A DNA stretch of 64,000 nt, from positions 1 through 64,000 of IMG/VR virus record IMGVR_UViG_3300042914_003272; one strand, given 5' to 3'. The notes beneath the pieces are model-generated. The model did no database searches. It worked only from the letters and a program-made list of their open reading frames with translations, and was not told the DNA's origin. The DNA is from a virus. Its lineage: Duplodnaviria > Caudoviricetes. Position 1 is the first letter of the stretch, and every line of letters begins with the position of its first letter. The position numbers and the translations under genes are program-made. This document shows positions 5,587 to 63,995 of this stretch, one piece after another.

Positions 5587-5608
5587 GCTAACGCCGCAGG
5601 AGTGGTGA
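5587..5608 (+). promoter_or_regulatory. class A hairpin element
   Basis: CGGC-TAAC-GCCG, core+11nt+TGA. Confidence 0.7.
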
Positions 5609-5636
5609 AGTTATTCAATAATTAGTGGAGTAGTTT

Positions 5637-5933
5637 ATGAAAACAATATTTAACAAAGAAGGTCACGGAGACGATGCAGAAAGCTTGCATCAATTTGTTG
5701 ACAGGAATAAGATAGAAAAAGATAGCAACCATGCTACTTTACGAATTGACAAAGATGATTGGATTTCTATCTTTTACAAAGCAACTAACGGAAAGTTTTA
5801 CAAAGAAACGACCTCTTGCGGCTACGAAATTCATCTTTATGAATTTGAGTCTGAAGAAGAATATCAGACTTGTTTAAAAACTTGTTTGTTTGTTAATTGC
5901 GGTATGGGGTTATCCAATAATAACCCCACCTAA
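5637..5933 (+). CDS. hypothetical protein
   Basis: GGAG RBS, class A element upstream. Confidence 0.6.
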   Translation: MKTIFNKEGHGDDAESLHQFVDRNKIEKDSNHATLRIDKDDWISIFYKATNGKFYKETTSCGYEIHLYEFESEEEYQTCLKTCLFVNCGMGLSNNNPT

Positions 5934-7190
5934 GTCTACTTTGGTATAGCTGCTGGTCATTTTACTAGCTCCTATACCAACGCATTCATCAACATAAGTA
6001 TAACTGGAAGTTCTTAATTCTATTTGAGTTATTGACTGGTTTTGCTTACTAGATGATATGCCAGAATAAATATCTTCATATTGATAACTAGTAACTTTTA
6101 AATCTACAGTTACAATGTTTTGGCTCTGCTTGCTAAAAGATATTCCATTATAAGAATCATCGGCATAAACCTGATGGGTAATATCTCCAAAAGTAAAATA
6201 AAATATGTTTGATGGAGTATCAACTAGCTTTCCATAGAAGTTAAAGTGAGAGACAATTCTATAATGTTTATTTAGTTCTAATTGAAATAATCTTTCTTCA
6301 TTAACAGCAGCATAATCAATTACTGTATAGCTCCCAGTTGTGTTAACAGTTAGGCTATAACCAATAATAAATTGACTCTCACAGCTAGGGGAATTCCAGG
6401 TGACAAAGATATTATTTATATCTTCACAATAAGCTTTTTGTAAATAATCTGGAGGGGAAATGTAAGGGGTTATAGATACTTTTTGGCATTCTCTATCAGA
6501 AACAATCCCTTTGCTTACCGAAATTCCATAATGTGTAGAAGTTGGGGTGTTGTAAACAACTAAATCTTGGAAAATAGCTGGGTTATTTTCCAGCTTTACC
6601 CTAAGAATGATTGGCAGTCCAGTCCCGCTATCACATCCAGAAGTGTAACAAGTTGATTGAATAAATATAGTTGGTTCTGCTATAGAGTCATTATCAAATA
6701 ATACGGTTTTATTTCCTGCTCTTTGTTCCCACTTAAAATTTTTACCATCACTTTCTATAGCTCCAGTTAGTTTGAATCCAGTAGCAGGTGGGCATACAAT
6801 AACAAATGATGGAATCAACAAGTTAATAAATGTACCACTATCATCCTCAGCTACAGTTACCTCCCAAAACCCAGTATTAGAGTTGGAACTATAATAAAAA
6901 TAAGTGGTTTTATTGGGTTCTTCTTTAATCTTAGAAGGTTGTAATTCTAACGCTTTTAAATATCTTTTATAGGCAGACTTGAAGTTATACTCTTCTTGAG
7001 GATTAAATTCCCTCTTTCGACCAGTAATAATATCATCTATATTTGGGTTTTCACTTTTACCTTCTTCAAAATCAAAAGCATCAGGATTAGGTTCTGTAGA
7101 CTTAGGAGCAATAAACGAAGTCCTGTTAGACTGCCCTTTGGCAGCCCAGGGTTTTAACTTGTTTATTTTACCATTCCATCTTGATGCCAT
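5910..7190 (-). CDS. putative virion protein (Ig/FN3-like beta domains)
   Basis: 426 aa, FKWEQ..G and VTWNSP..IIGYSL patterns. Confidence 0.5.
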   Translation of the reverse strand: MASRWNGKINKLKPWAAKGQSNRTSFIAPKSTEPNPDAFDFEEGKSENPNIDDIITGRKREFNPQEEYNFKSAYKRYLKALELQPSKIKEEPNKTTYFYYSSNSNTGFWEVTVAEDDSGTFINLLIPSFVIVCPPATGFKLTGAIESDGKNFKWEQRAGNKTVLFDNDSIAEPTIFIQSTCYTSGCDSGTGLPIILRVKLENNPAIFQDLVVYNTPTSTHYGISVSKGIVSDRECQKVSITPYISPPDYLQKAYCEDINNIFVTWNSPSCESQFIIGYSLTVNTTGSYTVIDYAAVNEERLFQLELNKHYRIVSHFNFYGKLVDTPSNIFYFTFGDITHQVYADDSYNGISFSKQSQNIVTVDLKVTSYQYEDIYSGISSSKQNQSITQIELRTSSYTYVDECVGIGASKMTSSYTKVDLGGVIIG

Positions 7191-7221
7191 GATTTTAGTT
7201 ATTAGTTTGTGATATAATTCT

Positions 7222-7257
7222 TCAAAGAAATAGGGGCGATTGCCCCATTAGTGGTGA
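7222..7257. promoter_or_regulatory. class A hairpin element, bidirectional
   Basis: GGGGC-GATT-GCCCC, TGA 11 nt away on both strands. Confidence 0.7.
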
Positions 7258-7286
7258 TGTAATTGATTCGTAAAAGGAAATAAACA

Positions 7287-10789: not shown

Positions 10790-10836
10790 AAATATTATTT
10801 TATTTAAGTTCTTAGTAGATACAATTCCTAGTAAGG

Positions 10837-10858
10837 GCTAATGCCCTAGTGATGGTGA
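10837..10858 (+). promoter_or_regulatory. class A hairpin element (antisense, no + ORF)
   Basis: AGGGC-TAAT-GCCCT, +11nt TGA. Confidence 0.65.
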
Positions 10859-10870
10859 TTTAGATTGGAA

Positions 10871-22151: not shown

Positions 22152-22199
22152 TTTAAATCCTGTATTTGTTTTGCTTGCAGTAGTTTTCCTATTACAAAG

Positions 22200-22221
22200 G
22201 CTAACGCCTTAAAAATGGTGA
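22200..22221 (+). promoter_or_regulatory. class A hairpin element
   Basis: AAGGC-TAAC-GCCTT, +11nt TGA. Confidence 0.7.
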
Positions 22222-22240
22222 TGTTTGTAATTTGTGACTT

Positions 22241-22384: not shown

Positions 22385-22501
22385 GAACTATAAGAATACA
22401 CTTTAACTACTTCACTTTATCCACCCTATGCGAGTTAGGGTGGATATTTTCTTTTGCGTATGTGTACAGTTTTATATATATTTTTTGAGCTTATAAATTT
22501 C

Positions 22502-22579: not shown

Positions 22580-22659
22580 GGGGCAAACTCAATTTATATA
22601 TATTATTTTAACCAAAAGAAAAAAGGGGGTGATGCCCTCAATTTTAAACCAATGAAGTT

Positions 22660-22698
22660 TTTATGGGTCGCTACGCTCCCAACTAATTGGTGTAGTTC
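22660..22698 (+). promoter_or_regulatory. class B hairpin element
   Basis: TTTATG..GCTACGC (22670)..TGTAGTT. Confidence 0.7.
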
Positions 22699-22990: not shown

Positions 22991-23019
22991 AGGGAATGGA
23001 TAAACCATTCCCTTTTTTT
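22991..23019 (+). terminator. intrinsic terminator fused to class B element
   Basis: AGGGAATGG-ATAAA-CCATTCCCT then T-run. Confidence 0.7.
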
Positions 23020-23052
23020 ATGGTCGCTACGCGCCCTAATTGTGGCGTAGTT
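23016..23052 (+). promoter_or_regulatory. class B hairpin element
   Basis: core 23026, CGTAGTT. Confidence 0.7.
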
Positions 23053-23647: not shown

Positions 23648-23654
23648 CCCTTTT

Positions 23655-23691
23655 TTTTATGTGGGCTACGCCCTGTCTAGTAATTGTAGTT
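23655..23691 (+). promoter_or_regulatory. class B hairpin element
   Basis: core 23665, GGGC-TAC-GCCC. Confidence 0.7.
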
Positions 23692-24073: not shown

Positions 24074-24119
24074 CTTCCTGGGGGTGAAATTCCCCCCGTT
24101 TGTCTTTCGCATGGACAAG

Positions 24120-24141
24120 GCTAACGCCTGATAGGTTTTGA
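24120..24141 (+). promoter_or_regulatory. class A hairpin element
   Basis: AGGC-TAAC-GCCT, +11nt TGA. Confidence 0.7.
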
Positions 24142-24394
24142 TGTTAGTCTTGTCTGATTATGGGGACTACAAATGCGGATACACTTGAGATATTGGAATG
24201 GGAGATACAAGAGGTAAACACGACAAAACAGAGCATCCTATAAACCAAGCTAAAATAAACCCAGTCAAAGAACCTCTTTAACAATTTAAATATTCAGTTG
24301 TCTAGACAGTGGGCTAAAACAATATAGGTAATCAGGTTTTACAACCAACTTGCAATCAGAACTTTAGAGTTCCCAACTAATTCTTTACTTTAAT

Positions 24395-24648: not shown

Positions 24649-24679
24649 GTCTTGCAGCTTGTTGTTCTGGCAAAGCTAT

Positions 24680-24717
24680 TTTTATGGTCGCTACGCTCCC
24701 TATATATAGTTGTAGTT
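24680..24717 (+). promoter_or_regulatory. class B hairpin element
   Basis: core 24690. Confidence 0.7.
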
Positions 24718-24916: not shown

Positions 24917-24942
24917 TGGAGGGCATTGTCCCTCCTTTTTTT
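24917..24942 (+). terminator. intrinsic terminator (duplicated at 25204)
   Basis: GGAGGGCATTGTCCCTCC plus T-run. Confidence 0.75.
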
Positions 24943-24976
24943 ATGGTCGCTACGCTCCCTATATATAGATGTAGTT
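24939..24976 (+). promoter_or_regulatory. class B hairpin element
   Basis: core 24949. Confidence 0.7.
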
Positions 24977-26625: not shown

Positions 26626-26641
26626 GCATACAAAGTACAAG

Positions 26642-26663
26642 GCTAACGCCTTATAAGCAGTGA
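26642..26663 (+). promoter_or_regulatory. class A hairpin element
   Basis: +11nt TGA. Confidence 0.7.
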
Positions 26664-26687
26664 AGTATCAACACAACAGTGCTGTAT

Positions 26688-26909
26688 ATGTCTAAAGAAA
26701 TAACTCAGGCTGCTGTAGTTGAATTTAACAACGCTAGAAAGTTGTTATCTGAAAACAACTTTCATGCTGTCCAAATGCTGCTTAACAATGACAGATACTG
26801 GTCTGTTATCTGGAAACTTAATGGTAAATTAACTAACATTAAAATTGGTTTGACTAAAGCCAAAGCCATTAAATTAGCAGAAGCTTTGAACAAAAAATTG
26901 AAACAATAA
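26688..26909 (+). CDS. hypothetical protein
   Basis: Downstream of class A element 26642. Confidence 0.55.
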   Translation: MSKEITQAAVVEFNNARKLLSENNFHAVQMLLNNDRYWSVIWKLNGKLTNIKIGLTKAKAIKLAEALNKKLKQ

Positions 26910-26913
26910 AGAT

Positions 26914-26951
26914 TTTTATGGTCGCTACGCTCCTACTTTGTAGGTGTAATT
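26914..26951 (+). promoter_or_regulatory. class B hairpin element
   Basis: core 26924, TGTAATT. Confidence 0.7.
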
Positions 26952-27361: not shown

Positions 27362-27390
27362 TGAATTAGGTGGTGTAAAAGCCACCTATT

Positions 27391-27430
27391 TTTTATGGTC
27401 GCTACGCTCCTAAATTATTTAGTTGTAGTT
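27391..27430 (+). promoter_or_regulatory. class B hairpin element
   Basis: core 27401. Confidence 0.7.
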
Positions 27431-27863: not shown

Positions 27864-27887
27864 CCTGTTGGCGTTAGCAAGTACAAG

Positions 27888-27909
27888 GCTAACGCCTAAT
27901 TACTTTTGG
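27888..27909 (+). promoter_or_regulatory. class A hairpin element
   Basis: +11nt TGG. Confidence 0.65.
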
Positions 27910-27937
27910 TGGAAATTAACTAATCGGAGAAAAAGAA

Positions 27938-28159: not shown

Positions 28160-28178
28160 GCTTAATCGAATAAAGGTT

Positions 28179-28218
28179 TTTATGGGAGGCTACGCCTCCC
28201 TTTTTTTTGTTTGTAGTT
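28179..28218 (+). promoter_or_regulatory. class B hairpin element
   Basis: GGGAGGC-TAC-GCCTCCC, core 28189. Confidence 0.7.
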
Positions 28219-28699: not shown

Positions 28700-28739
28700 T
28701 ACTCAATTTTTACCCATTGGTTTAATCCGGTGGGTGTTT

Positions 28740-28778
28740 TTTTATGTGCGCTACGCGTATTAATTTTAGTTTGTAGTT
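28740..28778 (+). promoter_or_regulatory. class B hairpin element
   Basis: core 28750. Confidence 0.7.
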
Positions 28779-29042: not shown

Positions 29043-29076
29043 TTTCAATTTAAGACCAGTGTAAAAGCTGGTCTTT

Positions 29077-29113
29077 TTTTATGTGCGCTACGCATCTTGA
29101 TTTAGTTGTAGTT
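29077..29113 (+). promoter_or_regulatory. class B hairpin element
   Basis: core 29087. Confidence 0.7.
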
Positions 29114-29380: not shown

Positions 29381-29410
29381 ATATATAGAGAGGGTTTAAT
29401 GCCCTCTTTT

Positions 29411-29449
29411 TTTTATGGACGCTACGCGCCCTACTAGTTTTGTGTAGTT
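29411..29449 (+). promoter_or_regulatory. class B hairpin element
   Basis: core 29421. Confidence 0.7.
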
Positions 29450-30454: not shown

Positions 30455-30490
30455 CCAGTGGTACAGGGGCGACTGCCCCATTAGAATTGA
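30455..30490 (+). promoter_or_regulatory. class A hairpin element (possibly bidirectional)
   Basis: GGGGC-GACT-GCCCC, TGA on plus, TGG on minus. Confidence 0.65.
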
Positions 30491-30595
30491 AGTATTAGCA
30501 AAATAAAAGGAGTTTCTCATGGAACGTGGTTCAGGTAGATAATTGACTGGAAGCACCCTATTCCTAGTGTTTTTATACTAAGAATAGGGGGCAAG

Positions 30596-30617
30596 GCTAA
30601 CGCCTAATTAGTTGTGA
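30596..30617 (+). promoter_or_regulatory. class A hairpin element
   Basis: +11nt TGA. Confidence 0.7.
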
Positions 30618-30643
30618 AGTAAAATAAATTTGGAGAATATGTT

Positions 30644-30820
30644 ATGCGTAATTATGTCTTTGCCATTCCAGGCAATGTTGGGTACGAGTATATCAAAGCC
30701 TCTAATCTAAAAGAGGCAGAAGATATTGCGAATGAAATATGCCGCAATCACTCCTTTTTAGGAGGGGCGGTGCAGCCTCTGGTGACGGAAGTAGGAAAAT
30801 CCTACGCTGACTCGAAATAG
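30644..30820 (+). CDS. small hypothetical protein (58 aa, not in track)
   Basis: GGAG RBS, class A element 30596 upstream. Confidence 0.5.
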   Translation: MRNYVFAIPGNVGYEYIKASNLKEAEDIANEICRNHSFLGGAVQPLVTEVGKSYADSK

Positions 30821-30821
30821 T

Positions 30822-30860
30822 TTTTATGGGGGCTACGCCCCTATTTGGTTTGTTGTAATT
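30822..30860 (+). promoter_or_regulatory. class B hairpin element
   Basis: GGGGC-TAC-GCCCC, core 30832. Confidence 0.7.
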
Positions 30861-31190: not shown

Positions 31191-31196
31191 ATAAAT

Positions 31197-31235
31197 TTTA
31201 TTAGGGGCTACGCCCCTATTTAGTTTGTTGTAGTT
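31197..31235 (+). promoter_or_regulatory. class B hairpin element
   Basis: TAGGGGC-TAC-GCCCCTA, core 31207. Confidence 0.7.
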
Positions 31236-31501: not shown

Positions 31502-31595
31502 TGATTTAGTTTAATCTTTTGGCGGCATAATAGCCCCTATTCCTAGTGTTTTTATACTAAGAATAGGGGGCAAGGCTTGCTGATTCAAAATAGTT

Positions 31596-31634
31596 TTTTA
31601 TGGGGGCTACGCCCCTATTTAGTTTAATGTAGTT
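31596..31634 (+). promoter_or_regulatory. class B hairpin element
   Basis: core 31606. Confidence 0.7.
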
Positions 31635-34861: not shown

Positions 34862-34897
34862 TCATAAATAAAGGGGTTAACACCCCAGTAGCAGTGA
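34862..34897. promoter_or_regulatory. class A hairpin element, bidirectional (terL / phosphatase)
   Basis: GGGGT-TAAC-ACCCC compensatory stem, TGA at 11 nt on both strands. Confidence 0.7.
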
Positions 34898-34915
34898 TGT
34901 AGTTAAAAGATTAAA

Positions 34916-36098: not shown

Positions 36099-36136
36099 AG
36101 TTTAGTTTTAGTCTTATAAAGTATTATATTTGTAAG

Positions 36137-36158
36137 GCTAACGCCTTAATAATGGTGA
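36137..36158 (+). promoter_or_regulatory. class A hairpin element
   Basis: +11nt TGA. Confidence 0.7.
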
Positions 36159-36180
36159 CGTAATCAAGGAATTAGAACTT

Positions 36181-43858: not shown

Positions 43859-43894
43859 TCAAAAGTATAGGGGCGATTGCCCCATTAATAGTGA
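43859..43894. promoter_or_regulatory. class A hairpin element, bidirectional
   Basis: GGGGC-GATT-GCCCC, TGA at 11 nt on both strands. Confidence 0.7.
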
Positions 43895-43913
43895 AGTAAT
43901 TTGTGAAGTAATT

Positions 43914-44541: not shown

Positions 44542-44542
44542 T

Positions 44543-45031: not shown

Positions 45032-45096
45032 GGTAAACTTAGTTTATTTTGCTTGCTTTAAATAATAACATAACTCAGGTTTAAACTAAAGAAGGT

Positions 45097-45134
45097 TTTT
45101 ATGGACGCTACGCGTCCTAGTTATAGTTTTAGTT
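45097..45134 (+). promoter_or_regulatory. class B hairpin element (degenerate downstream box)
   Basis: GGACGC-TAC-GCGTCC, core 45107. Confidence 0.6.
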
Positions 45135-45177
45135 CCTTCGGAGTTAGTATTCTTTTGGGATTAGGAGTAAAGAGTTT

Positions 45178-45216
45178 TTTATGGGGTGCTACGCACCTAT
45201 TTTTGTAGTTGTAGTT
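45178..45216 (+). promoter_or_regulatory. class B hairpin element
   Basis: GGTGC-TAC-GCACC, core 45188. Confidence 0.7.
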
Positions 45217-45245: not shown

Positions 45246-45623
45246 ATGCTGGATAGAATTGCTTTAAATCTAATTTCTTGTGGGTACATTTTTGTCAAAG
45301 AGTCCTGTGGGAAGTATTATGGCTACCCAGAAGACCTCCGTTGGTTCGGACATGGTGAAGCTATTTACGCTTTACCTCTACTCGATTTTCCTCAGATTGA
45401 GGATGAAGAAAATTATGTAATGCCTGAAGAGGGTATCACCGACCCTTATTGGGTAAGAAAGAATGGTGAGGATACTTATTCTTATACATCTTCCAGGATA
45501 TACGAATCGAGCATTCCCGTTCTTTCCGAAGAAGGCGAACCTATTTACGCAGTTAGACGGGAACTGATGTCCCTGGAATCTCAGTTTATCGCTGAGGTTT
45601 GGCAAAGGGATGTACAAGGCTAA
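45246..45623 (+). CDS. early hypothetical protein
   Basis: GGAGG RBS before ATG 45246; class B upstream. Confidence 0.55.
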   Translation: MLDRIALNLISCGYIFVKESCGKYYGYPEDLRWFGHGEAIYALPLLDFPQIEDEENYVMPEEGITDPYWVRKNGEDTYSYTSSRIYESSIPVLSEEGEPIYAVRRELMSLESQFIAEVWQRDVQG

Positions 45624-45640
45624 CGCCTAAATAGGATTGA
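45619..45640 (+). promoter_or_regulatory. class A hairpin element
   Basis: +11nt TGA. Confidence 0.7.
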
Positions 45641-45685
45641 ACTAACTCACTTCAATTTGACTTAGGTTGAATTGAAGTGAGTTAT

Positions 45686-45722
45686 TTTTATGTGGGCTAC
45701 GCGTTTTTGTGGAGTTGTAGTT
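45686..45722 (+). promoter_or_regulatory. class B hairpin element
   Basis: core 45696. Confidence 0.65.
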
Positions 45723-45918: not shown

Positions 45919-45930
45919 GGGATGTACAAG

Positions 45931-45952
45931 GCTAACGCCTAATCAGTTTTGA
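45931..45952 (+). promoter_or_regulatory. class A hairpin element
   Basis: +11nt TGA. Confidence 0.7.
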
Positions 45953-45987
45953 GTTAAGTTTTGAGTTAAGTTCAGTACAGGGAAGTT

Positions 45988-46194
45988 ATGAAAGCAGAAA
46001 AAATAAATCAAAAACTAAAACAAAAACCTTTTGTCGAAAAGAGTGAAGAGGGCATTGCCTTATATTGGGTAGTAAAAGGCGGGAAGTTTCGACTAACAAA
46101 CTTCCACCCATGCGAGGCTCTTGCATGGGGCGAGTTCTGGGGTGCTGTAAATATTTATGCAGATGATTCTGCGTCGGTTGACTGGGAAGGCTAA
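45988..46194 (+). CDS. hypothetical protein
   Basis: Class A upstream. Confidence 0.5.
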   Translation: MKAEKINQKLKQKPFVEKSEEGIALYWVVKGGKFRLTNFHPCEALAWGEFWGAVNIYADDSASVDWEG

Positions 46195-46211
46195 CGCCTA
46201 AATAGGATTGA
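46190..46211 (+). promoter_or_regulatory. class A hairpin element upstream of RNAP gene
   Basis: +11nt TGA. Confidence 0.7.
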
Positions 46212-46355
46212 ACTAACTCACTTTGATTTGACTTAGGTTGAATTGAAGTGAGTTATTTTTATGTTCACTTTGTGCTGATTTAAACAAAAACCCCTTAGTA
46301 GCTAGTTTGGTCGCTGTCTACTAGGGGGTCTTTTATCTAACATAGAGTCTATTCC

Positions 46356-48767
46356 ATGTCTAAGCTCATTCTAAAACAGTATGACCTGGTTAGTCAACAG
46401 TGGCTACCAGAGCATTGCAAGTCAACTTACCACAACACAATGTTGGGGCATCTATTCCCTAACGTTAAGTTTGCTATCGGTGATGTGGGTAGTTTATTAG
46501 CTGATGAAAATCCCAATATAGAATACATCTCTGAAGTTCTTGACAAAGGCTTTGAAGAGTATGTATTAGTCGGTGGTAGTGGTAGTAGAAAACAAGGCAA
46601 GGCAATCTACTCAACATCAGAGTTTGACTGTTTTACCAGATTTTTTGGTAGCAATATGAATGCTGCCAACTACGGTTCTAACTTAACAACTGAATGTAAG
46701 TTGATTAAGGATATCAGCATTAAGCTGCTAGTAGTTGATGACGGTGATAGCAAGTCCCGCAAGTACCGCACAGGTGATTGTCACGGGAAATGTTCTGAGA
46801 AGTTTGCTATGGAGTTTGTGGATTCCATATTCAATCCATTCCAGTTTAGGGCTTTCAATATCAACCCTGATTGGTGTGCAAAGGGTACGATTGCAGTTGG
46901 TTTTAAGAAAGGTAAGTATGACCTTGTTTTACCTACGTCCTGTTTTAAGGGCAATAAGGTTAAACCTGGGGAGTATGAGTTGGCTAAGTTGGCTTTTGGT
47001 GTGGTGTTTAAGTCACCATCCCTAAAAAGGTGGACCGAGACTCATGACATTCTAGGGCTTCAACTAGAGCGTGAGATGTGTGGTTACGACTACCGCAAGT
47101 CTAATCTTTCATATTCAGTAGTGCAGTTTCTGCCTTGGGATGCAGTGTGGGAAGACATAGTTCCCAATGCACAAAAACAGGCACAGGAACTTAACACCCT
47201 AGTCAGCAACCCTCAGAGGTTGTTAGATTACCTCCTGCGGAAAGGAGATGAAGGTAAAGGTCAAGAGAAATCTCGGTTAAGTCAGATTTTAAAGTCTGAC
47301 GTACACGGTCAGCTATCTACCCACCCATGGGCTATCAAGGCAACTATGGGAATGTTGAGTAGAAGATGGCGTGAGATTGCTACATCAGGTGGAATTAAGT
47401 TTAACTCATCTATGGTGATGCCAGATGAGGAATTACCAGATAACTCCTGTTACGTTCCAGGGTTAGCAGATGGTGAAGAGGTAATCGTATTTCCCTATCC
47501 TTGCCGTTGGAAGTACGACATCAAGGTATGGACAAATCACATACTCCCTAAGTGGGAACAGATGGAAGGAGTTATTGTAGGTAACTGCAATACTCTAATG
47601 AAACTTGGTAGAGATACCGACGGCGATTTTCTTATGTGGCTACCAGCATCTAAGTTACCTCACGTAGCTCAAGTTGTTAAGTCTTTTGGTGAACCTGACC
47701 TAGACCAGGCAGGGTTAAAGCCTAAGAAGATTCCCATTGAAGGCACTCTAGGACAAATTCTGGTTAAGAGTATGGAAAACTTAACTGGTCTGATAACCTA
47801 CTACATAGCCAAATCCTGGGCGTGTAAGAGGGAAGACTTTGTTTTCCAGTTAGTTCCACAACTTCAAGCAGCAGTTGATTCCCTCAAAGGTGCATTACCA
47901 CCTGACAGAAAATTAATAGGTTCTATTGGTAATGCACTCAAATCTCAACGAGTTGACTGGTTGAAACAGGTCAAGGATGACGACTGCTACCTATTCTACC
48001 AGATGTCATCACGGAGTAATGATACTGTAGGACTGTTGATAGCAGAGGTCAACAAGCTTTGGGTTAAGCCTGAGTTGAAGGCAACTAACCTTAGACCATT
48101 CAATGTTTTATTCTCACACCTCAATCCTAGCAAAAAGTGGATTGAGAGGGCTGAGGTTGTGTCTAACGAATATTCATCTGCCATGTATGCTGCCGGATTA
48201 GAACAACGTAGGTGGGAAAAGGCTAATCCAGGGAAGAGAGTTCCCAGAATTGTTAAAGAACGCAGATTATCTTCCCAGAAAGATATCTGTAAATACTATG
48301 AGGGGATACTTAACCATTTACCCCCTGCACAGAGGATGATGGCTGTAGCCGCTTTCTGGGACGTCAAACACAGGAATAACAAAACTGGTATTCCTAATCC
48401 TCAAGCCAAAGACCACGAAGACAGGGTAGGCTTCTCAACTAACATCTGTTTTTTGCTAGGCATAGAACAGATATGTGAGCAGCTTCAGGAATTGAGGATT
48501 GACACACTCAATATTGTAGGCAGGACTTACTCAGACTTCCGCAATCATATTTTCAAAGGTGAAATGATTGTCATTACCATTGAGTCAGGCATTGGTAATG
48601 ACGGAAAGCATTATTTCTTTGCCAAGTCCAATGGTTATAGCATTGGTGTAATCCCAGTAAAGGACACGCCACCTATTAAATTTGGAGATGAGATAGTGGT
48701 TTATCTCCACACCAGGTTTGATAAGGTAGGACATCCGAGTTACAACGAGGCCTTTCTTGTGAAGTAA
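46356..48767 (+). CDS. single-subunit two-barrel RNA polymerase (YonO / QDE-1 RdRP-like)
   Basis: GDCHGKCS, FQFR..AKGTI, catalytic GRDTDGDF (D420/D422/D424), AAVDSLKG in the order of the RdRP/YonO family. Confidence 0.75.
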   Translation: MSKLILKQYDLVSQQWLPEHCKSTYHNTMLGHLFPNVKFAIGDVGSLLADENPNIEYISEVLDKGFEEYVLVGGSGSRKQGKAIYSTSEFDCFTRFFGSNMNAANYGSNLTTECKLIKDISIKLLVVDDGDSKSRKYRTGDCHGKCSEKFAMEFVDSIFNPFQFRAFNINPDWCAKGTIAVGFKKGKYDLVLPTSCFKGNKVKPGEYELAKLAFGVVFKSPSLKRWTETHDILGLQLEREMCGYDYRKSNLSYSVVQFLPWDAVWEDIVPNAQKQAQELNTLVSNPQRLLDYLLRKGDEGKGQEKSRLSQILKSDVHGQLSTHPWAIKATMGMLSRRWREIATSGGIKFNSSMVMPDEELPDNSCYVPGLADGEEVIVFPYPCRWKYDIKVWTNHILPKWEQMEGVIVGNCNTLMKLGRDTDGDFLMWLPASKLPHVAQVVKSFGEPDLDQAGLKPKKIPIEGTLGQILVKSMENLTGLITYYIAKSWACKREDFVFQLVPQLQAAVDSLKGALPPDRKLIGSIGNALKSQRVDWLKQVKDDDCYLFYQMSSRSNDTVGLLIAEVNKLWVKPELKATNLRPFNVLFSHLNPSKKWIERAEVVSNEYSSAMYAAGLEQRRWEKANPGKRVPRIVKERRLSSQKDICKYYEGILNHLPPAQRMMAVAAFWDVKHRNNKTGIPNPQAKDHEDRVGFSTNICFLLGIEQICEQLQELRIDTLNIVGRTYSDFRNHIFKGEMIVITIESGIGNDGKHYFFAKSNGYSIGVIPVKDTPPIKFGDEIVVYLHTRFDKVGHPSYNEAFLVK

Positions 48768-48967
48768 AATAGATTTACTCCCTAGCTTAATTGCTAGGGA
48801 ATAACTACTTTCTTTTTTTTAACATGAACCAACAATCAAACCAATAACCGATTAGCTAAAGAGCAGTGGATTGAAGTTGCGTATGAACATGGTCAAGTAA
48901 TTCCTTTGCCATCTGAAATGTAATGGACTTCATAGGAACTCTAGCAACAAATTAATTTAGAGTTTCT

Positions 48968-54622: not shown

Positions 54623-54633
54623 GAATACATGGG

Positions 54634-54655
54634 GCTAACGCCCCTTTAGTGGTGA
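54634..54655 (+). promoter_or_regulatory. class A hairpin element
   Basis: GGGGC-TAAC-GCCCC, +11nt TGA. Confidence 0.7.
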
Positions 54656-54661
54656 GGTATC

Positions 54662-54985
54662 TTGGAAGTAACAATGTTAATAAGAAAAGAGAACACTCAG
54701 CTTACACTTAAAAAACATGGTGAAGATGAAAATGTTGTAATAGAATTTTCATTGATGGACAAAAAGGTTGTTTTAACAATTCACTTTTCCCATCAGAATT
54801 TAAGTACCAGGATTTATGACAATAGGTATGCAACTCTTGAACATTATCAACGGCTAATTCCATTAGCTGCTGAAATAATTAAAGGTCGGGAAGAGTTTAT
54901 TAAAGAACCATGTGGCTTTCTAGAACAACAGTCTTGGAAAGTTCAAAGCTTAGAAGACAAAGAGAATGCAATGCTAACGCATTAA
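54662..54985 (+). CDS. hypothetical protein
   Basis: Class A upstream. Confidence 0.5.
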   Translation: MEVTMLIRKENTQLTLKKHGEDENVVIEFSLMDKKVVLTIHFSHQNLSTRIYDNRYATLEHYQRLIPLAAEIIKGREEFIKEPCGFLEQQSWKVQSLEDKENAMLTH

Positions 54986-54994
54986 TAGTTATGA
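54973..54994 (+). promoter_or_regulatory. class A hairpin element
   Basis: AATGC-TAAC-GCATT compensatory stem, +11nt TGA. Confidence 0.7.
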
Positions 54995-55069
54995 AGTAAA
55001 AGTAAAACCCCTCTTAGAAATCTCCTAGGAGGGGCTTTTGATGTTTGATAATTGTAGGAGTATTATATC

Positions 55070-55802: not shown

Positions 55803-56306
55803 ATGGAATATCGCGCAATATCACTGCATCAACCTTGGGCTTCTCTTGTTGCTTTGGGAATTAAGAGGTATGAGACTAGAAGTTGGAGTACAAAGTTTAG
55901 AGGAAAACTTCTAATTTGTTCTGCAAAGAAAAAGTACGTACCAGATATTAGCTTTGTAAATAAAGTTTTCGACTTAAAAGATGTAAGACAATTTGACAGA
56001 ACAAGGCTAGACTTTATTGGTACGAACACAGAGTACGTAGAATTTCTTCCTTTGGGAAAAATCCTTTGCGTAACTGACTTAGTTGATTGCTTAAAAATGG
56101 AATCTTACCCTAAACACAAAGAAAATATAATTCTTGAAGACGTTCCAGAATTAGAACAGCTTTGTGGCGACTGGCAAGCAGGTAGATACGCATGGGAATT
56201 AGCTAATCTCATGACATTACCCAAACCTATTCCTATTAAAGGGAAACAAGGTTTATGGATTCCTGATAGTTCAATTATTCAAGACATTGAAAAACAATTT
56301 CAATAG
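55803..56306 (+). CDS. ASCH-domain protein
   Basis: AISLHQPWASLVALGIKRYETRSW..RGKLLICS..KGKQGLW. Confidence 0.9.
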   Translation: MEYRAISLHQPWASLVALGIKRYETRSWSTKFRGKLLICSAKKKYVPDISFVNKVFDLKDVRQFDRTRLDFIGTNTEYVEFLPLGKILCVTDLVDCLKMESYPKHKENIILEDVPELEQLCGDWQAGRYAWELANLMTLPKPIPIKGKQGLWIPDSSIIQDIEKQFQ

Positions 56307-56328
56307 GCTAACGCCTAAATGTTTGTGA
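56307..56328 (+). promoter_or_regulatory. class A hairpin element (ssb)
   Basis: TAGGC-TAAC-GCCTA, +11nt TGA. Confidence 0.7.
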
Positions 56329-56372
56329 GGAAATGCAATAATTTCCTCTTTACTCACTTACCAGTTAAATCC

Positions 56373-57032
56373 ATGAACATTATCATCATTACGCTCACAG
56401 TTAACTTTGTAGAATCCTTTACTGATATCCCTGGGCAACAACCATTTTCAATTGCTCAGTGTAGTTATCTTCAAACTGACAAAGACGGTAATCCTATAGA
56501 ACACTTTGTGACTATTAAAGGATTTAATAACTCCTACGATAAAACCTCTTCTGGCATTACCTCTGATAGATTAAGTTTATTTAAGCCAGGAATGAAAATG
56601 CTTGTTACAGGTCAATTATTTACTGAGCAAAAAGATAAGGAAACTAAACAAGTTATTGAACAGCCTTATATACTTGCCCATTCAGTTTGTCCAGTTAAGG
56701 CAGAAGTCAATTACAATACCATTTATCTTGCAGGTAAGATGATGAAAATGCCTGAAAAGAGAATTTATGAAAGTGGCAAACTGTCTATCACTACTTCACT
56801 TTTAATTAAGGAAGGGAGGAAGGGGTATTTCTACAACGTCACTGCTTGGAATAAGCAGGGTGAAACAGTAGAAAGATATTGTCGCAAAGGTGAGAATCTT
56901 GGGATTGAAGGCACTTTAGTTTTTGAATCCTGGAATGACAAGACCACTGGTGAACCCAGGACTGGCATTAAGATTACTGCTAATAAAGTGCGACTGATGG
57001 GAAGTAAAGATTCAAAAGATGATGAGTTCTAA
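56373..57032 (+). CDS. ssb: single-stranded DNA-binding protein (two OB folds)
   Basis: NTIYLAG..VTAWNKQGE..YCRKG..IEGTL..SWNDKTTGEPR; acidic DDEF tip. Confidence 0.85.
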   Translation: MNIIIITLTVNFVESFTDIPGQQPFSIAQCSYLQTDKDGNPIEHFVTIKGFNNSYDKTSSGITSDRLSLFKPGMKMLVTGQLFTEQKDKETKQVIEQPYILAHSVCPVKAEVNYNTIYLAGKMMKMPEKRIYESGKLSITTSLLIKEGRKGYFYNVTAWNKQGETVERYCRKGENLGIEGTLVFESWNDKTTGEPRTGIKITANKVRLMGSKDSKDDEF

Positions 57033-58789: not shown

Positions 58790-58825
58790 TCATAATCATT
58801 GGGGCAATCGCCCCTTTGATTTTGA
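58790..58825. promoter_or_regulatory. class A hairpin element, bidirectional
   Basis: GGGGC-AATC-GCCCC, TGA at 11 nt on both strands. Confidence 0.7.
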
Positions 58826-58865
58826 TGTACAATGTTTACTAGCAAAATAAACAGAATCAATAGTT

Positions 58866-59483: not shown

Positions 59484-59491
59484 CCAAGAAG

Positions 59492-59513
59492 GCTAACGCC
59501 TTAATAGTAGTGG
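59492..59513 (+). promoter_or_regulatory. class A hairpin element
   Basis: +11nt TGG. Confidence 0.65.
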
Positions 59514-59558
59514 AGTAACTAAAGGTAATTATGACTGAGGGTAAATATTGTATCAACC

Positions 59559-59900
59559 ATGAAAACTAAACTGGTAATTGACTGCACAATCAAAGGTAAT
59601 TTGTATCAACAAACGGTCAATGACCTCATTGACTTAGACAAGTTTATAGCCACACATCAAGCTCCTGAATACTTATTCTTTCATCCTGAGTACACAGCTT
59701 CCTTTAAGTTGTGTACAAAAGACATCTCACGATACTATTGTGAGTTTGCAGTGGCTGATAGAAAGTATGAGATTAAAACTCTGCAAACTTTATTGTTTTG
59801 TTTAGGTGATAATGTAGATGTTAAGGGTATTCCCTTGTTCTTTCAAATAGGGAATAGTTTGTTTGAAGTGAGTGCTAATGGGCTAACGCCCAACTGGTAG
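59559..59900 (+). CDS. hypothetical protein
   Basis: Class A upstream. Confidence 0.5.
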   Translation: MKTKLVIDCTIKGNLYQQTVNDLIDLDKFIATHQAPEYLFFHPEYTASFKLCTKDISRYYCEFAVADRKYEIKTLQTLLFCLGDNVDVKGIPLFFQIGNSLFEVSANGLTPNW

Positions 59901-59903
59901 TGA
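59882..59903 (+). promoter_or_regulatory. class A hairpin element
   Basis: TGGGC-TAAC-GCCCA, +11nt TGA. Confidence 0.7.
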
Positions 59904-59925
59904 TGTAGTTTTAAAGGTGAACGAA

Positions 59926-60722: not shown

Positions 60723-60737
60723 TCTTAGGAAACAACG

Positions 60738-60759
60738 GCTAACGCCTTACTAGTCTTGG
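60738..60759 (+). promoter_or_regulatory. class A hairpin element
   Basis: +11nt TGG. Confidence 0.65.
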
Positions 60760-61136
60760 AGATAACCATTTTCTTGATGTCGAGAAAATGGTTTAAATCG
60801 GTACTAAATAAATTAGGAGTAGTTGAGAAAGTGTTTACAAGAAAACAATACATGGCAAATGAATGTACTCACCGCGAGTATTATGGTCAATTTGTGACTG
60901 ATGAGATTAAACAAGCAGTGTTAAGGGTGTTTTCCAGGGAGAAATTAGTTCATGCTTTTAAGAAAGATGAAGATTTTAATACTCTGCCTTTACACCAGTG
61001 GGATTTCATACCTTATGAGTTCTCTGAATTTGCTAAAGCAATGAAAGAGGCTAACGGTAATAGTAGTATCTCTCTAAGTGATTGCGTTTGCACTTCTAAG
61101 GAAGCTGCTAGACAAATCATAGAAGAAATCGAATAA
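60756..61136 (+). CDS. hypothetical protein
   Basis: Class A upstream; true start likely internal. Confidence 0.55.
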   Translation: MEITIFLMSRKWFKSVLNKLGVVEKVFTRKQYMANECTHREYYGQFVTDEIKQAVLRVFSREKLVHAFKKDEDFNTLPLHQWDFIPYEFSEFAKAMKEANGNSSISLSDCVCTSKEAARQIIEEIE

Positions 61137-61548: not shown

Positions 61549-61586
61549 GCCGAACTCGAAAAACTCTCCCTAGAGTTCGGCTGTTT
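61549..61586. terminator. hairpin between convergent genes
   Basis: AGCCGAACTC...GAGTTCGGCT. Confidence 0.5.
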
Positions 61587-61647
61587 ATGGGGTGAAAATC
61601 CCAATCACTGAAGAACTGAGCAAGCTTGTCCTAGAAACTGACCTAGA

Positions 61648-62997
61648 TTACCAGGTCTGCTGAACCATATTTTTAAACTGAGTATATTCAGCATCGAACA
61701 ACAACTTTACAGTTCCTGTTGGTCCATTTCTGTGTTTAGCAATTATAATCTCTGCTAAACCCTTATCCATGGTTTCGGAATTGTAATACTCATCCCTGTA
61801 CAAAAACATTGCTATATCTGCTTCTTGCTCAATACTTCCGCTTTCACGTAAGTCACTTAGCATAGGACGTTTATTTGTTCTTGCTTCTACGGCACGACTT
61901 AATTGAGATAGAGCTATAACAGGACAATGGAGTTCTCTAGCCATTTGTTTTAACATTCTAGTGATGTATGACAATTCACTTACCCTGTTGTCTTTCCCAT
62001 CAAATCTAGGGTCAGACATTAGTTGTAGGTAATCTATCATTACCAAACCAAGTTGCCCTTGTTCACTGGCTAAACTACGGCATTGGCTGTTAATAACTCC
62101 AACACTAACATTACCAGTATCACAGATGTGAATGTTGGGACTTATATTCCTGGTAGCAAGTTGTAAACTATCCCATTGTTCTTTAGTTAATTTCCCCGTC
62201 TTCAATGCAATAGATGGAACTTTTGCATCAGCACCTTGCATTCTATTTACTAATTGTTCTTTACTCATTTCCAGAGAAAAGATAGCAACAGGTAAATTGT
62301 GTTGGGTGGCAATATACTTGGAAATATTTACCGCAATTGCTGTTTTTCCCATACTTGGTCTACCAGCAACTATGATTAAATCACTTCTCTGGAATCCCGC
62401 AGTCATGGCATCTAAATCATAGAAACCACAGGGAATACCAGGAGGAATTAAACCATTGGCAACATTAATTGTGTGGTTAAAATTCACCGCAGCAATGGTG
62501 TTAGCGTTGGTAAAAATGGCTTTTCTACCTGATTGAGTAACAGCATAAATCTTCTGTTCTGCTATATTTTTTACCTCATCAATAGATAAATCGGTTTGAT
62601 GTCCTAATTGAATTAACTCATTTCCAGTTTTGATAAGTTGCCTACGGTCATATTTTTCTATTACTAATTCTGCCAAGGCATCAATATTAACAGCACAAAC
62701 TACGCTGTCTGTCAATGTTGCCAGTTTATTCCTACCACCAATCCTCATTAATTTATCGTGGTCAGTCAACCAACTTGTTATTGATAATAAATCCGTTGGT
62801 TTACCTTGAGAGTGTAAAACTACAGCAGCATCGTAAATAATGCCGTGGTCACTAAGGTAAAACATTTCAGGACGTAGTTTATCTATTACCCTAGAAATTG
62901 CATCTGGGTCTAATAAAATACCACCTAGAATCGCTGCTTCTGCTTCCATGTTTTGTGGGGGTAAAGACGGATTACCACTAAAGTTTAGTTTTGACAT
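61648..62997 (-). CDS. dnaB: replicative DNA helicase DnaB
   Basis: PPQNMEAE, AGRPSMGKT, FSLEMS, IDYLQL, LSQLSR, RPMLSDLRESGSIEQ, KHRNGPTG; no intein. Confidence 0.96.
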   Translation of the reverse strand: MSKLNFSGNPSLPPQNMEAEAAILGGILLDPDAISRVIDKLRPEMFYLSDHGIIYDAAVVLHSQGKPTDLLSITSWLTDHDKLMRIGGRNKLATLTDSVVCAVNIDALAELVIEKYDRRQLIKTGNELIQLGHQTDLSIDEVKNIAEQKIYAVTQSGRKAIFTNANTIAAVNFNHTINVANGLIPPGIPCGFYDLDAMTAGFQRSDLIIVAGRPSMGKTAIAVNISKYIATQHNLPVAIFSLEMSKEQLVNRMQGADAKVPSIALKTGKLTKEQWDSLQLATRNISPNIHICDTGNVSVGVINSQCRSLASEQGQLGLVMIDYLQLMSDPRFDGKDNRVSELSYITRMLKQMARELHCPVIALSQLSRAVEARTNKRPMLSDLRESGSIEQEADIAMFLYRDEYYNSETMDKGLAEIIIAKHRNGPTGTVKLLFDAEYTQFKNMVQQTW

Positions 62998-63091
62998 AAC
63001 TGTTAACCTGTTTATTTTGCTATTAAATCTTCAATGCCAATAAGGCAATAGCCTATGATGTTTAATTCATAGGCTACTATAAATAGTATAA

Positions 63092-63295
63092 TTACTCTTG
63101 AGGAGTGGGTGGTGCTATTCCAGCAATCCTTTTAGCATCTAAAAAGATTATCTTTGCATTGATATTGTTGGCTCTTTGTTGTTCTTCCAAAATACTTACA
63201 AGTTCATTTTGATTCATAGGTGCTTTTGACTTAACAGTGGTAGTGCCTTGATAGCCTTCACTGTCTTTGTAGTGAACTATGTAGGTTACAGCCAT
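63092..63295 (-). CDS. hypothetical protein
   Basis: AGGAG RBS. Confidence 0.55.
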   Translation of the reverse strand: MAVTYIVHYKDSEGYQGTTTVKSKAPMNQNELVSILEEQQRANNINAKIIFLDAKRIAGIAPPTPQE

Positions 63296-63356
63296 TTTCT
63301 TTTCTCCTGTTAGTTGGTAAAATTTAGCAAACGAAATGTTTGTTTAGAAACCTCAC

Positions 63357-63995
63357 TTACGCCACATTCCTTAAATTACTCAATACTTTGTTTTTGTCTG
63401 CAAGCATATTGGGGAAATTGTCAGGGAATGTTTTACTAATCCACAATTCCCAGACATCTATCTCAGCTTGAGATTTGGTGTAATGGAACTTAGATAAGTC
63501 ACATTTACATTCCAAATATTCTTTGTATTGAGTTTTTACCCAAGCCCAAGAGGTTTTAACCCATGAAGGAAGATTATCTATTTCCTTCAACACTCTAGCG
63601 GCGTTAGCCGCAGGTGATGTGGTGTACTCCTGGAAATCCAACATCATGGCTTCAATTAAAGCTAAACCCTGCTCATCATATTCTCGTTTAGCAAGCCATA
63701 TCATAACTTGACCAGAAGTAATTTCTTTGCCTTCGTAATGCGGTGTCCTGGGTAGATAAACTTCTTTAAGGTATTTAACTACGTCAGGTTTATATTGGTG
63801 TTTGCCAAGACTAGTCCTCCAAGGCTGCAAGGGTTTAGGCTTCCATTTGTCCTCAAACTTCTGGGTAGAAGAATAAGTGTTTTGTAGTGGAAGTGGTTGG
63901 TATTCTAGAGGTACTGAGGGTGGAAGTGTTGGTATTGAATCTACTACTGGAAACTCCTGTAGTGGACTAGCCATCTCGCGCACAGGGAAATCCAA
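63357..63995 (-). CDS. hypothetical protein, probably 5'-partial (possible replication protein)
   Basis: Runs to window edge, upstream of dnaB. Confidence 0.45.
   Translation of the reverse strand: MDFPVREMASPLQEFPVVDSIPTLPPSVPLEYQPLPLQNTYSSTQKFEDKWKPKPLQPWRTSLGKHQYKPDVVKYLKEVYLPRTPHYEGKEITSGQVMIWLAKREYDEQGLALIEAMMLDFQEYTTSPAANAARVLKEIDNLPSWVKTSWAWVKTQYKEYLECKCDLSKFHYTKSQAEIDVWELWISKTFPDNFPNMLADKNKVLSNLRNVA
63587..63608 (-). promoter_or_regulatory. class A element on minus strand pointing at dnaB
   Basis: Minus strand GCGGC-TAAC-GCCGC, +11nt TGA. Confidence 0.65.

Follow-up and report, generated by a model that had tools for sequence, protein, structure and literature searches.

The phage record IMGVR_UViG_3300042914_003272 (IMG/VR; 75,163 bp, completeness rated 99%, G+C ~38%; hereafter G000) encodes a single-chain two-barrel RNA polymerase (RNAP) of 803 amino acids, P0001, and carries about 50 short hairpin elements of two classes, A and B, spread over much of its plus-strand gene set. 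An earlier sequence-only reading had proposed that polymerase and hairpins together form a transcription system. The window analysed here is bases 1-64000 of G000, and the further ~11 kb (64001-75163) was scanned for elements. Virion genes lie in minus-strand blocks, and the plus-strand blocks hold many small open reading frames (ORFs) without annotated function, the candidate polymerase, a single-stranded DNA-binding (SSB) family protein, a helicase and others; a DnaB-like helicase gene lies in a short minus-strand block at 61.6-64.9 kb. The source DNA runs containing G000 sequence are labelled lake water metagenome, one being labelled algae metagenome, and the named polymerase homologues come from filamentous cyanobacteria including Rivularia, Coleofasciculus, Nostoc and Microcoleus; G000 is therefore probably an uncultivated freshwater phage of (filamentous) cyanobacteria.

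Results

A single-chain two-barrel polymerase

The P0001 frame is open over its whole length and contains every motif that had been quoted from it: TGDCHGKCS, FQFR..AKG, VIVFPYPCRW, GRDTDGDF and AAVDSLKG. The GRDTDGDF loop (residues 417-424) carries the metal-binding DxDGD signature, and P0001 is the sole ORF with a DxD[GAS]D motif in the whole 75,163-bp genome. Across an alignment of 59 homologues D141, R165, K176, G177, S195, K198, H323, D420, D422, G423, D508 and K511 are invariant, and D424 and R384 are at least 90% conserved. R165, K176 and K198 fall within the FQFR..AKG..FKG stretch and may be the basic residues of the other barrel that face the Asp triad. The profile of this alignment matches plant RDR2 chains at ~1e-4, in an alignment that spans the pre-loop region, the DxDGD loop (DLDGD in RDR2) and the AVDxxK motif, and a fold search returned the overall fold common to solved two-barrel polymerases, with gp64 of phage P23-45 as the closest solved structure. 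These answers came from the family profile and the fold search; phmmer of P0001 alone against the PDB gave only E >0.5. A two-barrel polymerase of the RNA-dependent RNA polymerase (RdRP)/YonO class, as proposed from sequence, is thus borne out by fold and profile, and the assignment is solid. Within this class the nearest solved relative is gp64 and not YonO, of which the PDB searches returned no chain. By analogy with its phage homologues gp64 and YonO, we infer that P0001 copies DNA. Its C-terminal beta-rich add-on is possibly an S1/OB-like barrel.

Large-scale searches retrieved 64 relatives of P0001 in one case and 265 in another, mostly on 40-80 kb metagenome contigs, and 6 of the 64 carry a precomputed PF05183 (eukaryote-type RdRP) match. 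The only PHROG match is the unnamed phrog_34895 (5e-29), and tblastn of P0001 against 50,697 phage records gave no match. Pfam and PHROG scans of 62 ORFs, a part of the total, found no second polymerase, T7-like family or sigma factor. Directly downstream of the polymerase gene, 48968-54622 (+) encodes an N-, Q- and P-rich protein of 1,884 amino acids with repeated (S/N)RTAG/N motifs and a hydrophobic stretch close to its C-terminus; it matches no Pfam or PHROG family and has no DxDGD, hence is not an obvious second polymerase.

Two families of hairpin elements

Repeat finding directly recovered two families, class A and class B. A class A covariance model (R1) was built from 20 copies, and all class A scores given here are R1 bits; the consensus is ACAAGGCTAACGCCTnATTAGTnGTGAnGTAA. 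In the window 23 matches score at least 30 bits (22 on the plus strand and one on the minus strand) and one further minus-strand match scores 23.9 bits, giving 24, of which four lie outside the training set. Nine more matches in the 11 kb past the window bring the genome to 33 (30 plus, 3 minus), and the minus-strand copies sit in or beside the minus-strand helicase block. The sequence-only reading had counted 27 class A elements in the window, a figure that four weaker candidates (13845, 33472 on the minus strand, 40269 and 57025) would approach.

Class A geometry is rigid, GC-N4-GC-N11-TGR in 32 of the 33 copies, and the fixed downstream box that had been described is this N11-TGR after the stem. 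The stem is followed by (T)nATTAGTnGTGA and by no T-run, so it does not have the form of an intrinsic terminator. In an alignment of 45 distinct copies, fitted to the model and including copies from relatives, which inflate such counts, 93.3% of stem cells pair, 38 are double-changed and one is G-U. None of 500 shuffles reached the observed percentage paired, the double-changed cells or the covariation score; slid registers lower the pairing to 31-52%, and a hand-made 20-copy alignment agrees. The stems are compensatory, as had been claimed.

Class B comprises exactly 17 copies in the genome, the number counted before, all on the plus strand and confined to 22.6-31.7 kb and 45.1-45.7 kb. Each copy runs in the order T-run, ATG(G), a stem around an invariant GCTACGC, 14-17 nt, and (T)GTAGTT, often doubled. 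The T-run precedes the hairpin, which is not the intrinsic-terminator order. By inspection, top-strand TC/CT mismatches in 5 of the 17 stems are tandem GA/AG on the bottom strand.

Mini-hairpin motifs on the template strand

When the template strand is read, the class A core GCTAACGC becomes GCGTTAGC. The class B core GCTACGC, found on the sense strand in 17/17 copies, becomes GCGTAGC, with a GNA loop of the N4 type. Mini-hairpin DNA, which is extraordinarily stable, is defined as exactly GCGNNAGC or GCGNAGC in a 2026 review by its discoverers (PMC13037366). According to the same source, GCGTAGC melts at 70 degrees C (Tm), GCGTTAGC occurs at the primase-dependent origins of phages St-1 and alpha3, and the known transcriptional case is the promoter of the N4 mini-virion RNAP (mini-vRNAP), GCGGAGC, with GGA or GAA loops and a 5-bp stem (PMC13037366). 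In G000 both exact motifs are found on the bottom strand: GCGTTAGC occurs 31 times there and 4 times on the top strand, GCGTAGC 18 and 2 times, and GCGAAGC 3 and 0 times, where ~7 in total, over all N variants and the two strands, would be expected from a first-order Markov model.

The proposal that template-strand hairpins are read gains support from the identity of both cores with published mini-hairpin motifs. Nearest-neighbour DNA folding did not separate the strands (-3.1 vs -3.2 and -6.4 vs -6.5 kcal/mol; for the commonest class B stem, 0 kcal/mol top and -0.5 kcal/mol bottom) in a model that appears to give no GNA/GNNA loop bonus. The near absence of G-U pairs fits such a structure, because the stem must also exist as a Watson-Crick duplex, and the tandem GA/AG of five class B stems on the bottom strand is a hint in the same direction. 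Furthermore, at each of the three divergent gene pairs 7190/7287, 34849/34916 and 43799/43914 a hairpin carries N11-TGA on both strands, which a small cruciform would permit, and single hairpins are shared by divergent gene pairs only 87-114 nt apart.

Position relative to genes, terminators and transcripts

The elements are strand-specific, and 40 of 50 lie outside called ORFs though ~87% of the genome is called ORF (crude ORF calls, which apply to all counts of this kind). A same-strand element lies 15-200 nt upstream of 38/67 plus-strand ORFs and 1/44 minus-strand ORFs in the genome, the window alone giving 31/47 and 1/38; this bears out the earlier statement that the elements stand before most non-virion genes and share their orientation. 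The distance from element start to same-strand start codon is mostly 45-70 nt. Neither consensus contains -35/-10 hexamers 16-18 bp apart, and sigma-70-like sites are enriched neither at 22000-33500 (23 vs 32.3 +/- 5.5 in shuffles) nor at 43700-49000 (11 vs 13.6 +/- 4.2 expected).

Meanwhile, terminator-like hairpins are four times more numerous than expected at 22000-33500 (33 vs 8.4 +/- 2.8), nearly all on the plus strand. In seven class B copies of this region the start lies within the T-run of a hairpin of this type, and another copy comes directly after the 19-bp hairpin at 45643-45684; the early islands are chains of terminator, class B and small gene. Upstream of the polymerase gene, three copies of each class are clustered together with a duplicated 78-nt unit (45616-45693 and 46187-46264, +; 97% identity), each copy of which contains a class A element, directly a 19-bp hairpin with T-run, and the start of a class B T-run. 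Such a unit would be a ~40-nt transcription unit, a small RNA or an attenuator. Following the class A element at 46182, the 19-bp hairpin with T-run is terminator-like in the scan and a second hairpin, seen by inspection, comes after it.

No class A or B copy precedes the late operons on their own strand, and 9/9 inspected share a class A hairpin that points the opposite way. Several have putative TATAAT-like boxes, in DNA that is AT-rich. Boxes of the form AGGAAT(T/A)(A/G)TAyC stand on the minus strand at 2976, 5580, 7222 and 10829, before four late (tail-region) genes, where they come shortly after a class A hairpin read in reverse; they could represent a class of late promoters or simply belong to the ribosome-binding context. 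A third, general 'late' motif AGGAATTATAyC was rejected, since at up to 2 mismatches it matches many intergenic sites, only 4 are convincing and it overlaps a Shine-Dalgarno-like AGGA.

A separate leader, (TA)GCAAAATAAAC(A/G)G, precedes start codons by 10-20 nt regardless of which element lies upstream. At 32195, 43700 and 57105 a TATAAT box stands 6-19 nt ahead of the leader, suggestive of a small number of host-type promoters. An 8-codon ORF, MERGSGR* (30519-30542, +), has its own class A element (30461) and a GCAAAATAAAAGGAG leader. The sequence RGSGR is that of the active PatS heterocyst-inhibitor peptide and would point to a heterocyst-forming host; what was verified is the ORF itself.

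Contigs from two metatranscriptome runs of two studies (X23, X24) match parts of 22001-42000. They are assembled from RNA libraries that possibly contain DNA, so that strand, starts and levels are unreadable and uncovered bins mean nothing. One contig begins at 31640, 6 nt past a class B box, and others cross class A elements; no conclusion is drawn from either.

Distribution among related phages

Close relatives (L003-L006; polymerase 78-98% identical) keep class A. The complete 75.7-kb genome G001, which has terminal repeats and a polymerase 46% identical to P0001, carries GCGTTAGC 20 times and the canonical mini-hairpin GCGAAGC 7 times on the template strand of polymerase-strand genes, with the spacing GC-N4-GC-N10-TGR in 13/16 copies. 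In G002 (85 kb, 50% G+C), where the polymerase is 25% identical over residues 17-683, all 9/9 listed copies read GGATA-GCTACGC-TA..., then after exactly 11 nt TGA(G/A)T, and lie 15-30 nt upstream of start codons on the polymerase strand. The pattern GCTN{1,2}CGCN{10,11}TGA occurs 25 times in G000, 16 in G001, 10 in G002 and 4 in a fourth polymerase-bearing genome, G003; the backwards control gives 0-3.

Phages without the polymerase served for comparison: eight portal-related IMG/VR genomes, taken from 80 portal-relative loci (~35% identity) as all those with a contig of at least 64 kb except G001, and the isolate Synechococcus phage S-EIV1 (portal 37.7% identical). Although it recovered G001-G003, the polymerase profile matched neither the eight genomes nor S-EIV1, and the pattern occurs 0-3 times in each of the eight and once in S-EIV1, all of these being distant from G000. 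As G000 and G001 are kin, the association spans about two independent lineages, not three. On the question raised earlier, whether related phages carry polymerase and motifs together, they do in G001 and G002, and the motifs are absent from nine polymerase-less relatives, whereas G003 has the polymerase without the motif. This co-occurrence rests on the related loci retrieved, the intermediates P0021, P0028 and P0031 (38-43% identity, contigs 66-72 kb) being outside the comparison. In 37 metagenome loci with distant homologues there were no pattern matches beyond chance, a result that is weak either way because these loci are mostly short or G+C-rich.

G003 (L067-L070) has a strand-marked hairpin of its own, TTTCCGNCGGAAA, TTTCCG(A/T)CGGAAA, in 13 exact copies (for example 16833, 24167 and 32955). 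The loops on the polymerase strand are GAC in 9 and GTC in 4; there are 15 sites at up to one mismatch and no clear box. The cyanobacterial palindrome HIP1, GCGATCGC, is the top over-represented word in G001 and G002 (L058-L066) and is not among the top words of G000.

Other features of the window

A group I intron (Rfam RF00028, 53.4 bits, full-length model) at 15040-15279 (-) abuts the 3' end of the head-protein ORF. In the virion region, ORF 37073-37924 (-) contains four tandem 33-nt repeats at 37278-37442 that encode an 11-residue protein repeat (family D11). Mapped features are collected in Table 1.

Table 1. Positions of the polymerase gene, the hairpin elements and other features in G000, with R1 scores for class A.
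Feature	Position	Strand	Detail
Single-chain two-barrel RNA polymerase, P0001	46356..48767	+	803 aa; catalytic loop D420-T-D422-G-D424
C-terminal beta-rich polymerase add-on	48453..48767	+	~residues 717-803; outside all solved relatives
Class A	5579..5620	+	38.4 bits; 58 nt before ATG 5637; hairpin shared with divergent late gene starting 5549
Class A	7228..7269	+	41.2 bits +, 22.9 -; GGGGC-GATT-GCCCC hairpin, bidirectional (N11-TGA also on -)
Class A	10829..10870	+	32.1 bits; outside training set; no + ORF downstream, antisense into late gene
Class A	22192..22233	+	41.7 bits
Class A	24112..24153	+	37.1 bits
Class A	26634..26675	+	40.9 bits
Class A	27880..27921	+	39.0 bits
Class A	30461..30502	+	34.9 bits; before 8-codon ORF MERGSGR
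Class A	30588..30629	+	46.3 bits; best score
Class A	34868..34909	+	42.2 bits; stem GGGGT/ACCCC (inner pair double-changed), bidirectional
Class A	36129..36170	+	41.6 bits
Class A	43865..43906	+	40.9 bits +, 26.5 -; bidirectional, N11-TGA both strands
Class A	45611..45652	+	39.2 bits; then directly 19-bp hairpin and T-run
Class A	45923..45964	+	39.5 bits
Class A	46182..46223	+	33.2 bits; outside training set; 174 nt before polymerase gene
Class A	54626..54667	+	40.5 bits
Class A	54965..55006	+	41.2 bits; stem ATGC/GCAT (double-changed)
Class A	56299..56340	+	38.9 bits; just upstream of SSB gene
Class A	58796..58837	+	31.7 bits
Class A	59484..59525	+	43.0 bits
Class A	59874..59915	+	43.5 bits
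Class A	60730..60771	+	33.9 bits
Class A	63575..63616	-	31.7 bits; outside training set; in minus-strand gene block
Class A, weaker	63019..63060	-	23.9 bits; 63 nt before DnaB-like helicase gene
Class B	22656..22697	+	T-run, ATGG, GCTACGC core, GTAGTT box
Class B	23011..23052	+	directly after terminator-like hairpin
Class B	23650..23691	+	directly after terminator-like hairpin
Class B	24675..24717	+	
Class B	24934..24976	+	directly after terminator-like hairpin
Class B	26909..26951	+	
Class B	27386..27430	+	directly after terminator-like hairpin
Class B	28175..28218	+	
Class B	28735..28778	+	directly after terminator-like hairpin
Class B	29072..29113	+	directly after terminator-like hairpin
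Class B	29406..29449	+	directly after terminator-like hairpin
Class B	30817..30860	+	
Class B	31192..31235	+	
Class B	31591..31634	+	
Class B	45092..45134	+	
Class B	45174..45216	+	
Class B	45681..45722	+	directly after 19-bp hairpin
SSB-family protein	56319..57032	+	237 aa; PF00436, 4.7e-17, residues 133-227
Major head protein	15268-16386	-	
Portal-like protein	19103-21301	-	
Large terminase	33338-34849	-	
Tape-measure-like protein	38079-39251	-	
GCAAAATAAAC leader	13938, 23693, 29515, 30498, 32195, 43700, 57105, 58842	+	
GCAAAATAAAC leader	63020, 45052, 43675	-	
GCAAAATAAAC leader	65243 (+), 65016 (-)		past window

Discussion

The hairpin elements of G000 are real and far beyond chance. The favoured explanation, to which a probability of roughly 0.6 is given, is that the phage polymerase uses class A and class B as promoters in the form of template-strand hairpins, by convergence with phage N4. 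P0001 would be a phage-encoded single-chain two-barrel DNA-dependent RNAP of the gp64/YonO/RdRP class, and each of its promoters would consist of a very short G+C stem with a template loop GNNA in class A (GCGTTAGC) or GNA in class B (GCGTAGC). Negative supercoiling or transient strand separation would let a mini-hairpin form on the template strand, and near-palindromic sites would form a small cruciform, which would explain promoters firing both ways. The polymerase would recognise hairpin shape and loop bases and start RNA at a fixed downstream distance, near TGR, 11 nt past the class A stem, or near the class B (T)GTAGTT box, and the majority of the small early units would end in terminator-like hairpins with T-runs. 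The analysis shows the polymerase fold and catalytic motif, the elements with their covariation, geometry, strand and position, and their occurrence together with the polymerase; that hairpins extrude, where RNA starts and that P0001 reads the elements are inferred. A wider and more tentative proposal, put at slightly under even odds, is that a freshwater cyanophage lineage runs most of its non-virion expression with one RdRP-fold polymerase that natively recognises template-strand mini-hairpins (GCGTTAGC, GCGTAGC, GCGAAGC) and a start box ~11 nt on.

It is unlikely that the elements are instead RNA-level 5' leader signals, such as a stabiliser, a processing site or the site of a translational regulator, in mRNAs made from other promoters. 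The hairpin does covary like an RNA helix, its distance to the start codon is nearly constant, RNA-library contigs cross elements (for example 27843-28029 over the copy at 27880), and the conserved GCAAAATAAAC leader shows that the phage uses leader signals. In mRNA, however, the loops would be UAAC and UAC. To our knowledge neither has been described as a stable loop in RNA, whereas the complementary sequences are the two established mini-hairpin motifs of DNA; only one G-U pair, moreover, is set against 38 double changes. Furthermore, a class B element that begins in the T-run of a preceding terminator-like hairpin leaves no room for another promoter; an independent transcript would lack an upstream promoter, which is hard to square with a pure leader role. 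The sharing of one hairpin by closely spaced divergent genes also speaks against it, and no Rfam family matches the elements at gathering score.

It also seems improbable that the elements are read by the host RNAP together with a phage factor that binds hairpins or inverted repeats, the RdRP-like enzyme doing another job such as RNA-templated synthesis, counter-defence or priming. In cells the fold has its nearest relatives among RNA-dependent polymerases; the polymerase gene itself lies behind the same elements, which is easiest explained if the host enzyme reads them; and the late operons share the class A hairpin in reverse with TATAAT-like boxes just downstream. Set against this are the lack of -35/-10 geometry and of enriched sigma-70-like sites, and the lack of a sigma-like protein in the 62 ORFs scanned, a part of the whole. 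A dimeric duplex-binding factor would not select compensatory stem changes, and the motif tracks the polymerase down to 25% identity and is absent from the nine relatives that lack it.

A role of the mini-hairpins as single-stranded (ss) DNA replication-priming sites on the lagging-strand template, like the G4/St-1/alpha3 origins and with the two-barrel enzyme perhaps as primase, is judged very improbable. In its favour, GCGTTAGC is exactly the mini-hairpin of the St-1/alpha3 primase-dependent origins (PMC13037366), the copies within a block are all on one strand, and no DNA polymerase or primase family was recognised among the G000 ORFs scanned, though these do include an SSB and two helicases, one of them DnaB-like. 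Priming gives no reason, however, for the fixed 45-70 nt to start codons, the avoidance of coding sequence, the position after terminators or the flip of strand with the genes, and an N11-TGR box succeeded by a leader and a ribosome-binding site looks like the beginning of a transcription unit. A role as terminators or insulators for the phage polymerase, finally, is suggested by near-palindromic G+C hairpins between convergent or tandem genes (for example 23636-23651 and 58796) and by the fusion of class B to T-runs, and is highly unlikely given that class A has no T-run after its stem, that conservation lies downstream of the hairpin (N11-TGR), that the kept distance is to the next start codon and not the previous stop, and that separate longer hairpins with T-runs already fill the terminator role.

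Several observations weigh against the promoter explanation itself. P0001 has no (R/K)xP arginine, as the sequence-only reading had rightly cautioned: FPYP stands where the family consensus has R (family profile 'fryP', RDR2 TKNP), and R384 lies two residues on. It also reaches no Pfam family (E up to 1) and stays below the PF05183 gathering threshold. Seven G000 class A copies have non-GNNA template loops (top-strand GATT, GACT, AATC, AATT, TAAT, TATT), most of them with longer G+C stems, and the class B spacing from core to box varies over 14-17 nt. The class A element at 10829 and the weak candidate at 40269 run antisense into late genes and have no ORF to serve. G003 has a polymerase (~29% identical to the clade) and the pattern at background only (2+2), and no excess of mini-hairpins is seen in the early region of P23-45, the phage with the closest structure (gp64), so the trait would belong to this cyanophage group and not be general to the fold. 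Class A and B elements and terminator-like hairpins precede the polymerase gene, and no convincing sigma-70-like site was found ahead of it; the first polymerase might be brought in with the virion or be made by host RNAP from an unrecognised signal. Lastly, the RNA data consist solely of assembled contigs, from which starts cannot be read and of which some cross elements.

Phage-encoded two-barrel RNAPs with cognate promoters are a known kind. The solved relatives P23-45 gp64 and P74-26 gp62 (PDB 8F72, 8F5M) are non-virion RNAPs with ~10-11% identity to P0001; gp64 has ~600 amino acids and is without the C-terminal beta domain that P0001 has. From chromatin immunoprecipitation sequencing (ChIP-seq) and transcription start site mapping on early promoters, its authors propose initiation at a GC-rich motif (PMC10770324). 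This motif is less conserved, and the word 'hairpin' is absent from the text (PMC10770324), on which this comparison is made. P23-45 also has a second, tape-measure-fused virion RNAP, whereas G000 has a single DxDGD ORF. SPbeta YonO is, like P0001, a single-peptide two-barrel DNA-dependent RNAP and transcribes phage genes; its promoter was undetermined as of 2017 (PMC5467207), and cyanobacterial 'YonO-like' proteins were noted in 2010 and 2017 (PMC2919709, PMC5467207). For the crAss-like virion enzyme, the literature search found no information on promoter recognition. QDE-1 and plant RDR2 (PF05183) are primer-independent or end-initiating, act in silencing and have no promoters, whereas P0001 belongs to a double-stranded (ds) DNA phage.

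The closest functional likeness is to N4, in which hairpin extrusion is driven by supercoiling and helped by SSB (PMC13492108, PMC13037366). The class B core GCGTAGC is of the same kind. G000 encodes an SSB-family protein in which one Pfam SSB domain was found, where the earlier reading had named two OB folds; purely by analogy with N4, the protein is a possible accessory factor, and extrusion and SSB dependence may apply to G000 as well. The N4 vRNAP, however, is a virion-carried T7-fold enzyme of 3,500 amino acids, whereas P0001 has an unrelated two-barrel fold. Unlike N4, G000 also has the 4-nt loop and N11-TGR box of class A, and its ~50 sites cover much of the plus-strand gene set, where N4 has only a handful of early promoters. 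Because the enzyme has another fold, the G000 system would work like the N4 hairpin promoters yet not be a member of the N4 system. N4 late genes use the host RNAP, and in this the late operons of G000 would resemble N4. The origins of G4, St-1 and alpha3, with the octamer GCGTTAGC identical in St-1 and alpha3 (PMC13037366), are single sites in ssDNA phages read by host primase, unlike the 31 + 4 copies tied to gene starts in the dsDNA phage G000. New here are the identity of the cores with mini-hairpin DNA on the template strand, the rigid class A geometry, the recurrence with diverged polymerases and the absence from nine relatives without the polymerase. The pairing of hairpin promoters with this fold has not been described before as far as the literature search goes, which found no paper on hairpin promoters for a two-barrel polymerase or on these motifs and had most subscription journals beyond its reach.

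Promoter recognition by single-chain two-barrel phage polymerases is barely understood, gp64 having provided a loose GC-rich motif only. The G000 genome supplies ~50 natural variants of a putative promoter, with covarying stems, a rigid spacer and two loop classes, and orthologous sets at 46% and 25% identity, and one recombinant protein with oligonucleotide templates would suffice to test the recognition code directly. If the favoured explanation is true, a ~30-nt portable promoter for a two-barrel single-chain RNAP would be at hand, possibly as a new orthogonal transcription module, and an abundant lake phage lineage, probably of filamentous cyanobacteria, would depend little on host promoters. 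It would also mean that the N4 strategy was invented independently on the other great polymerase fold and was kept while the enzyme diverged to 25% identity. Furthermore, reading of a template-strand hairpin would provide a link to the DNA-template activity of QDE-1 and bear on the origin of RNA interference (RNAi) polymerases from phage enzymes; structured ssDNA would then be an ancestral type of template in the family from which the eukaryotic RNAi polymerases arose.

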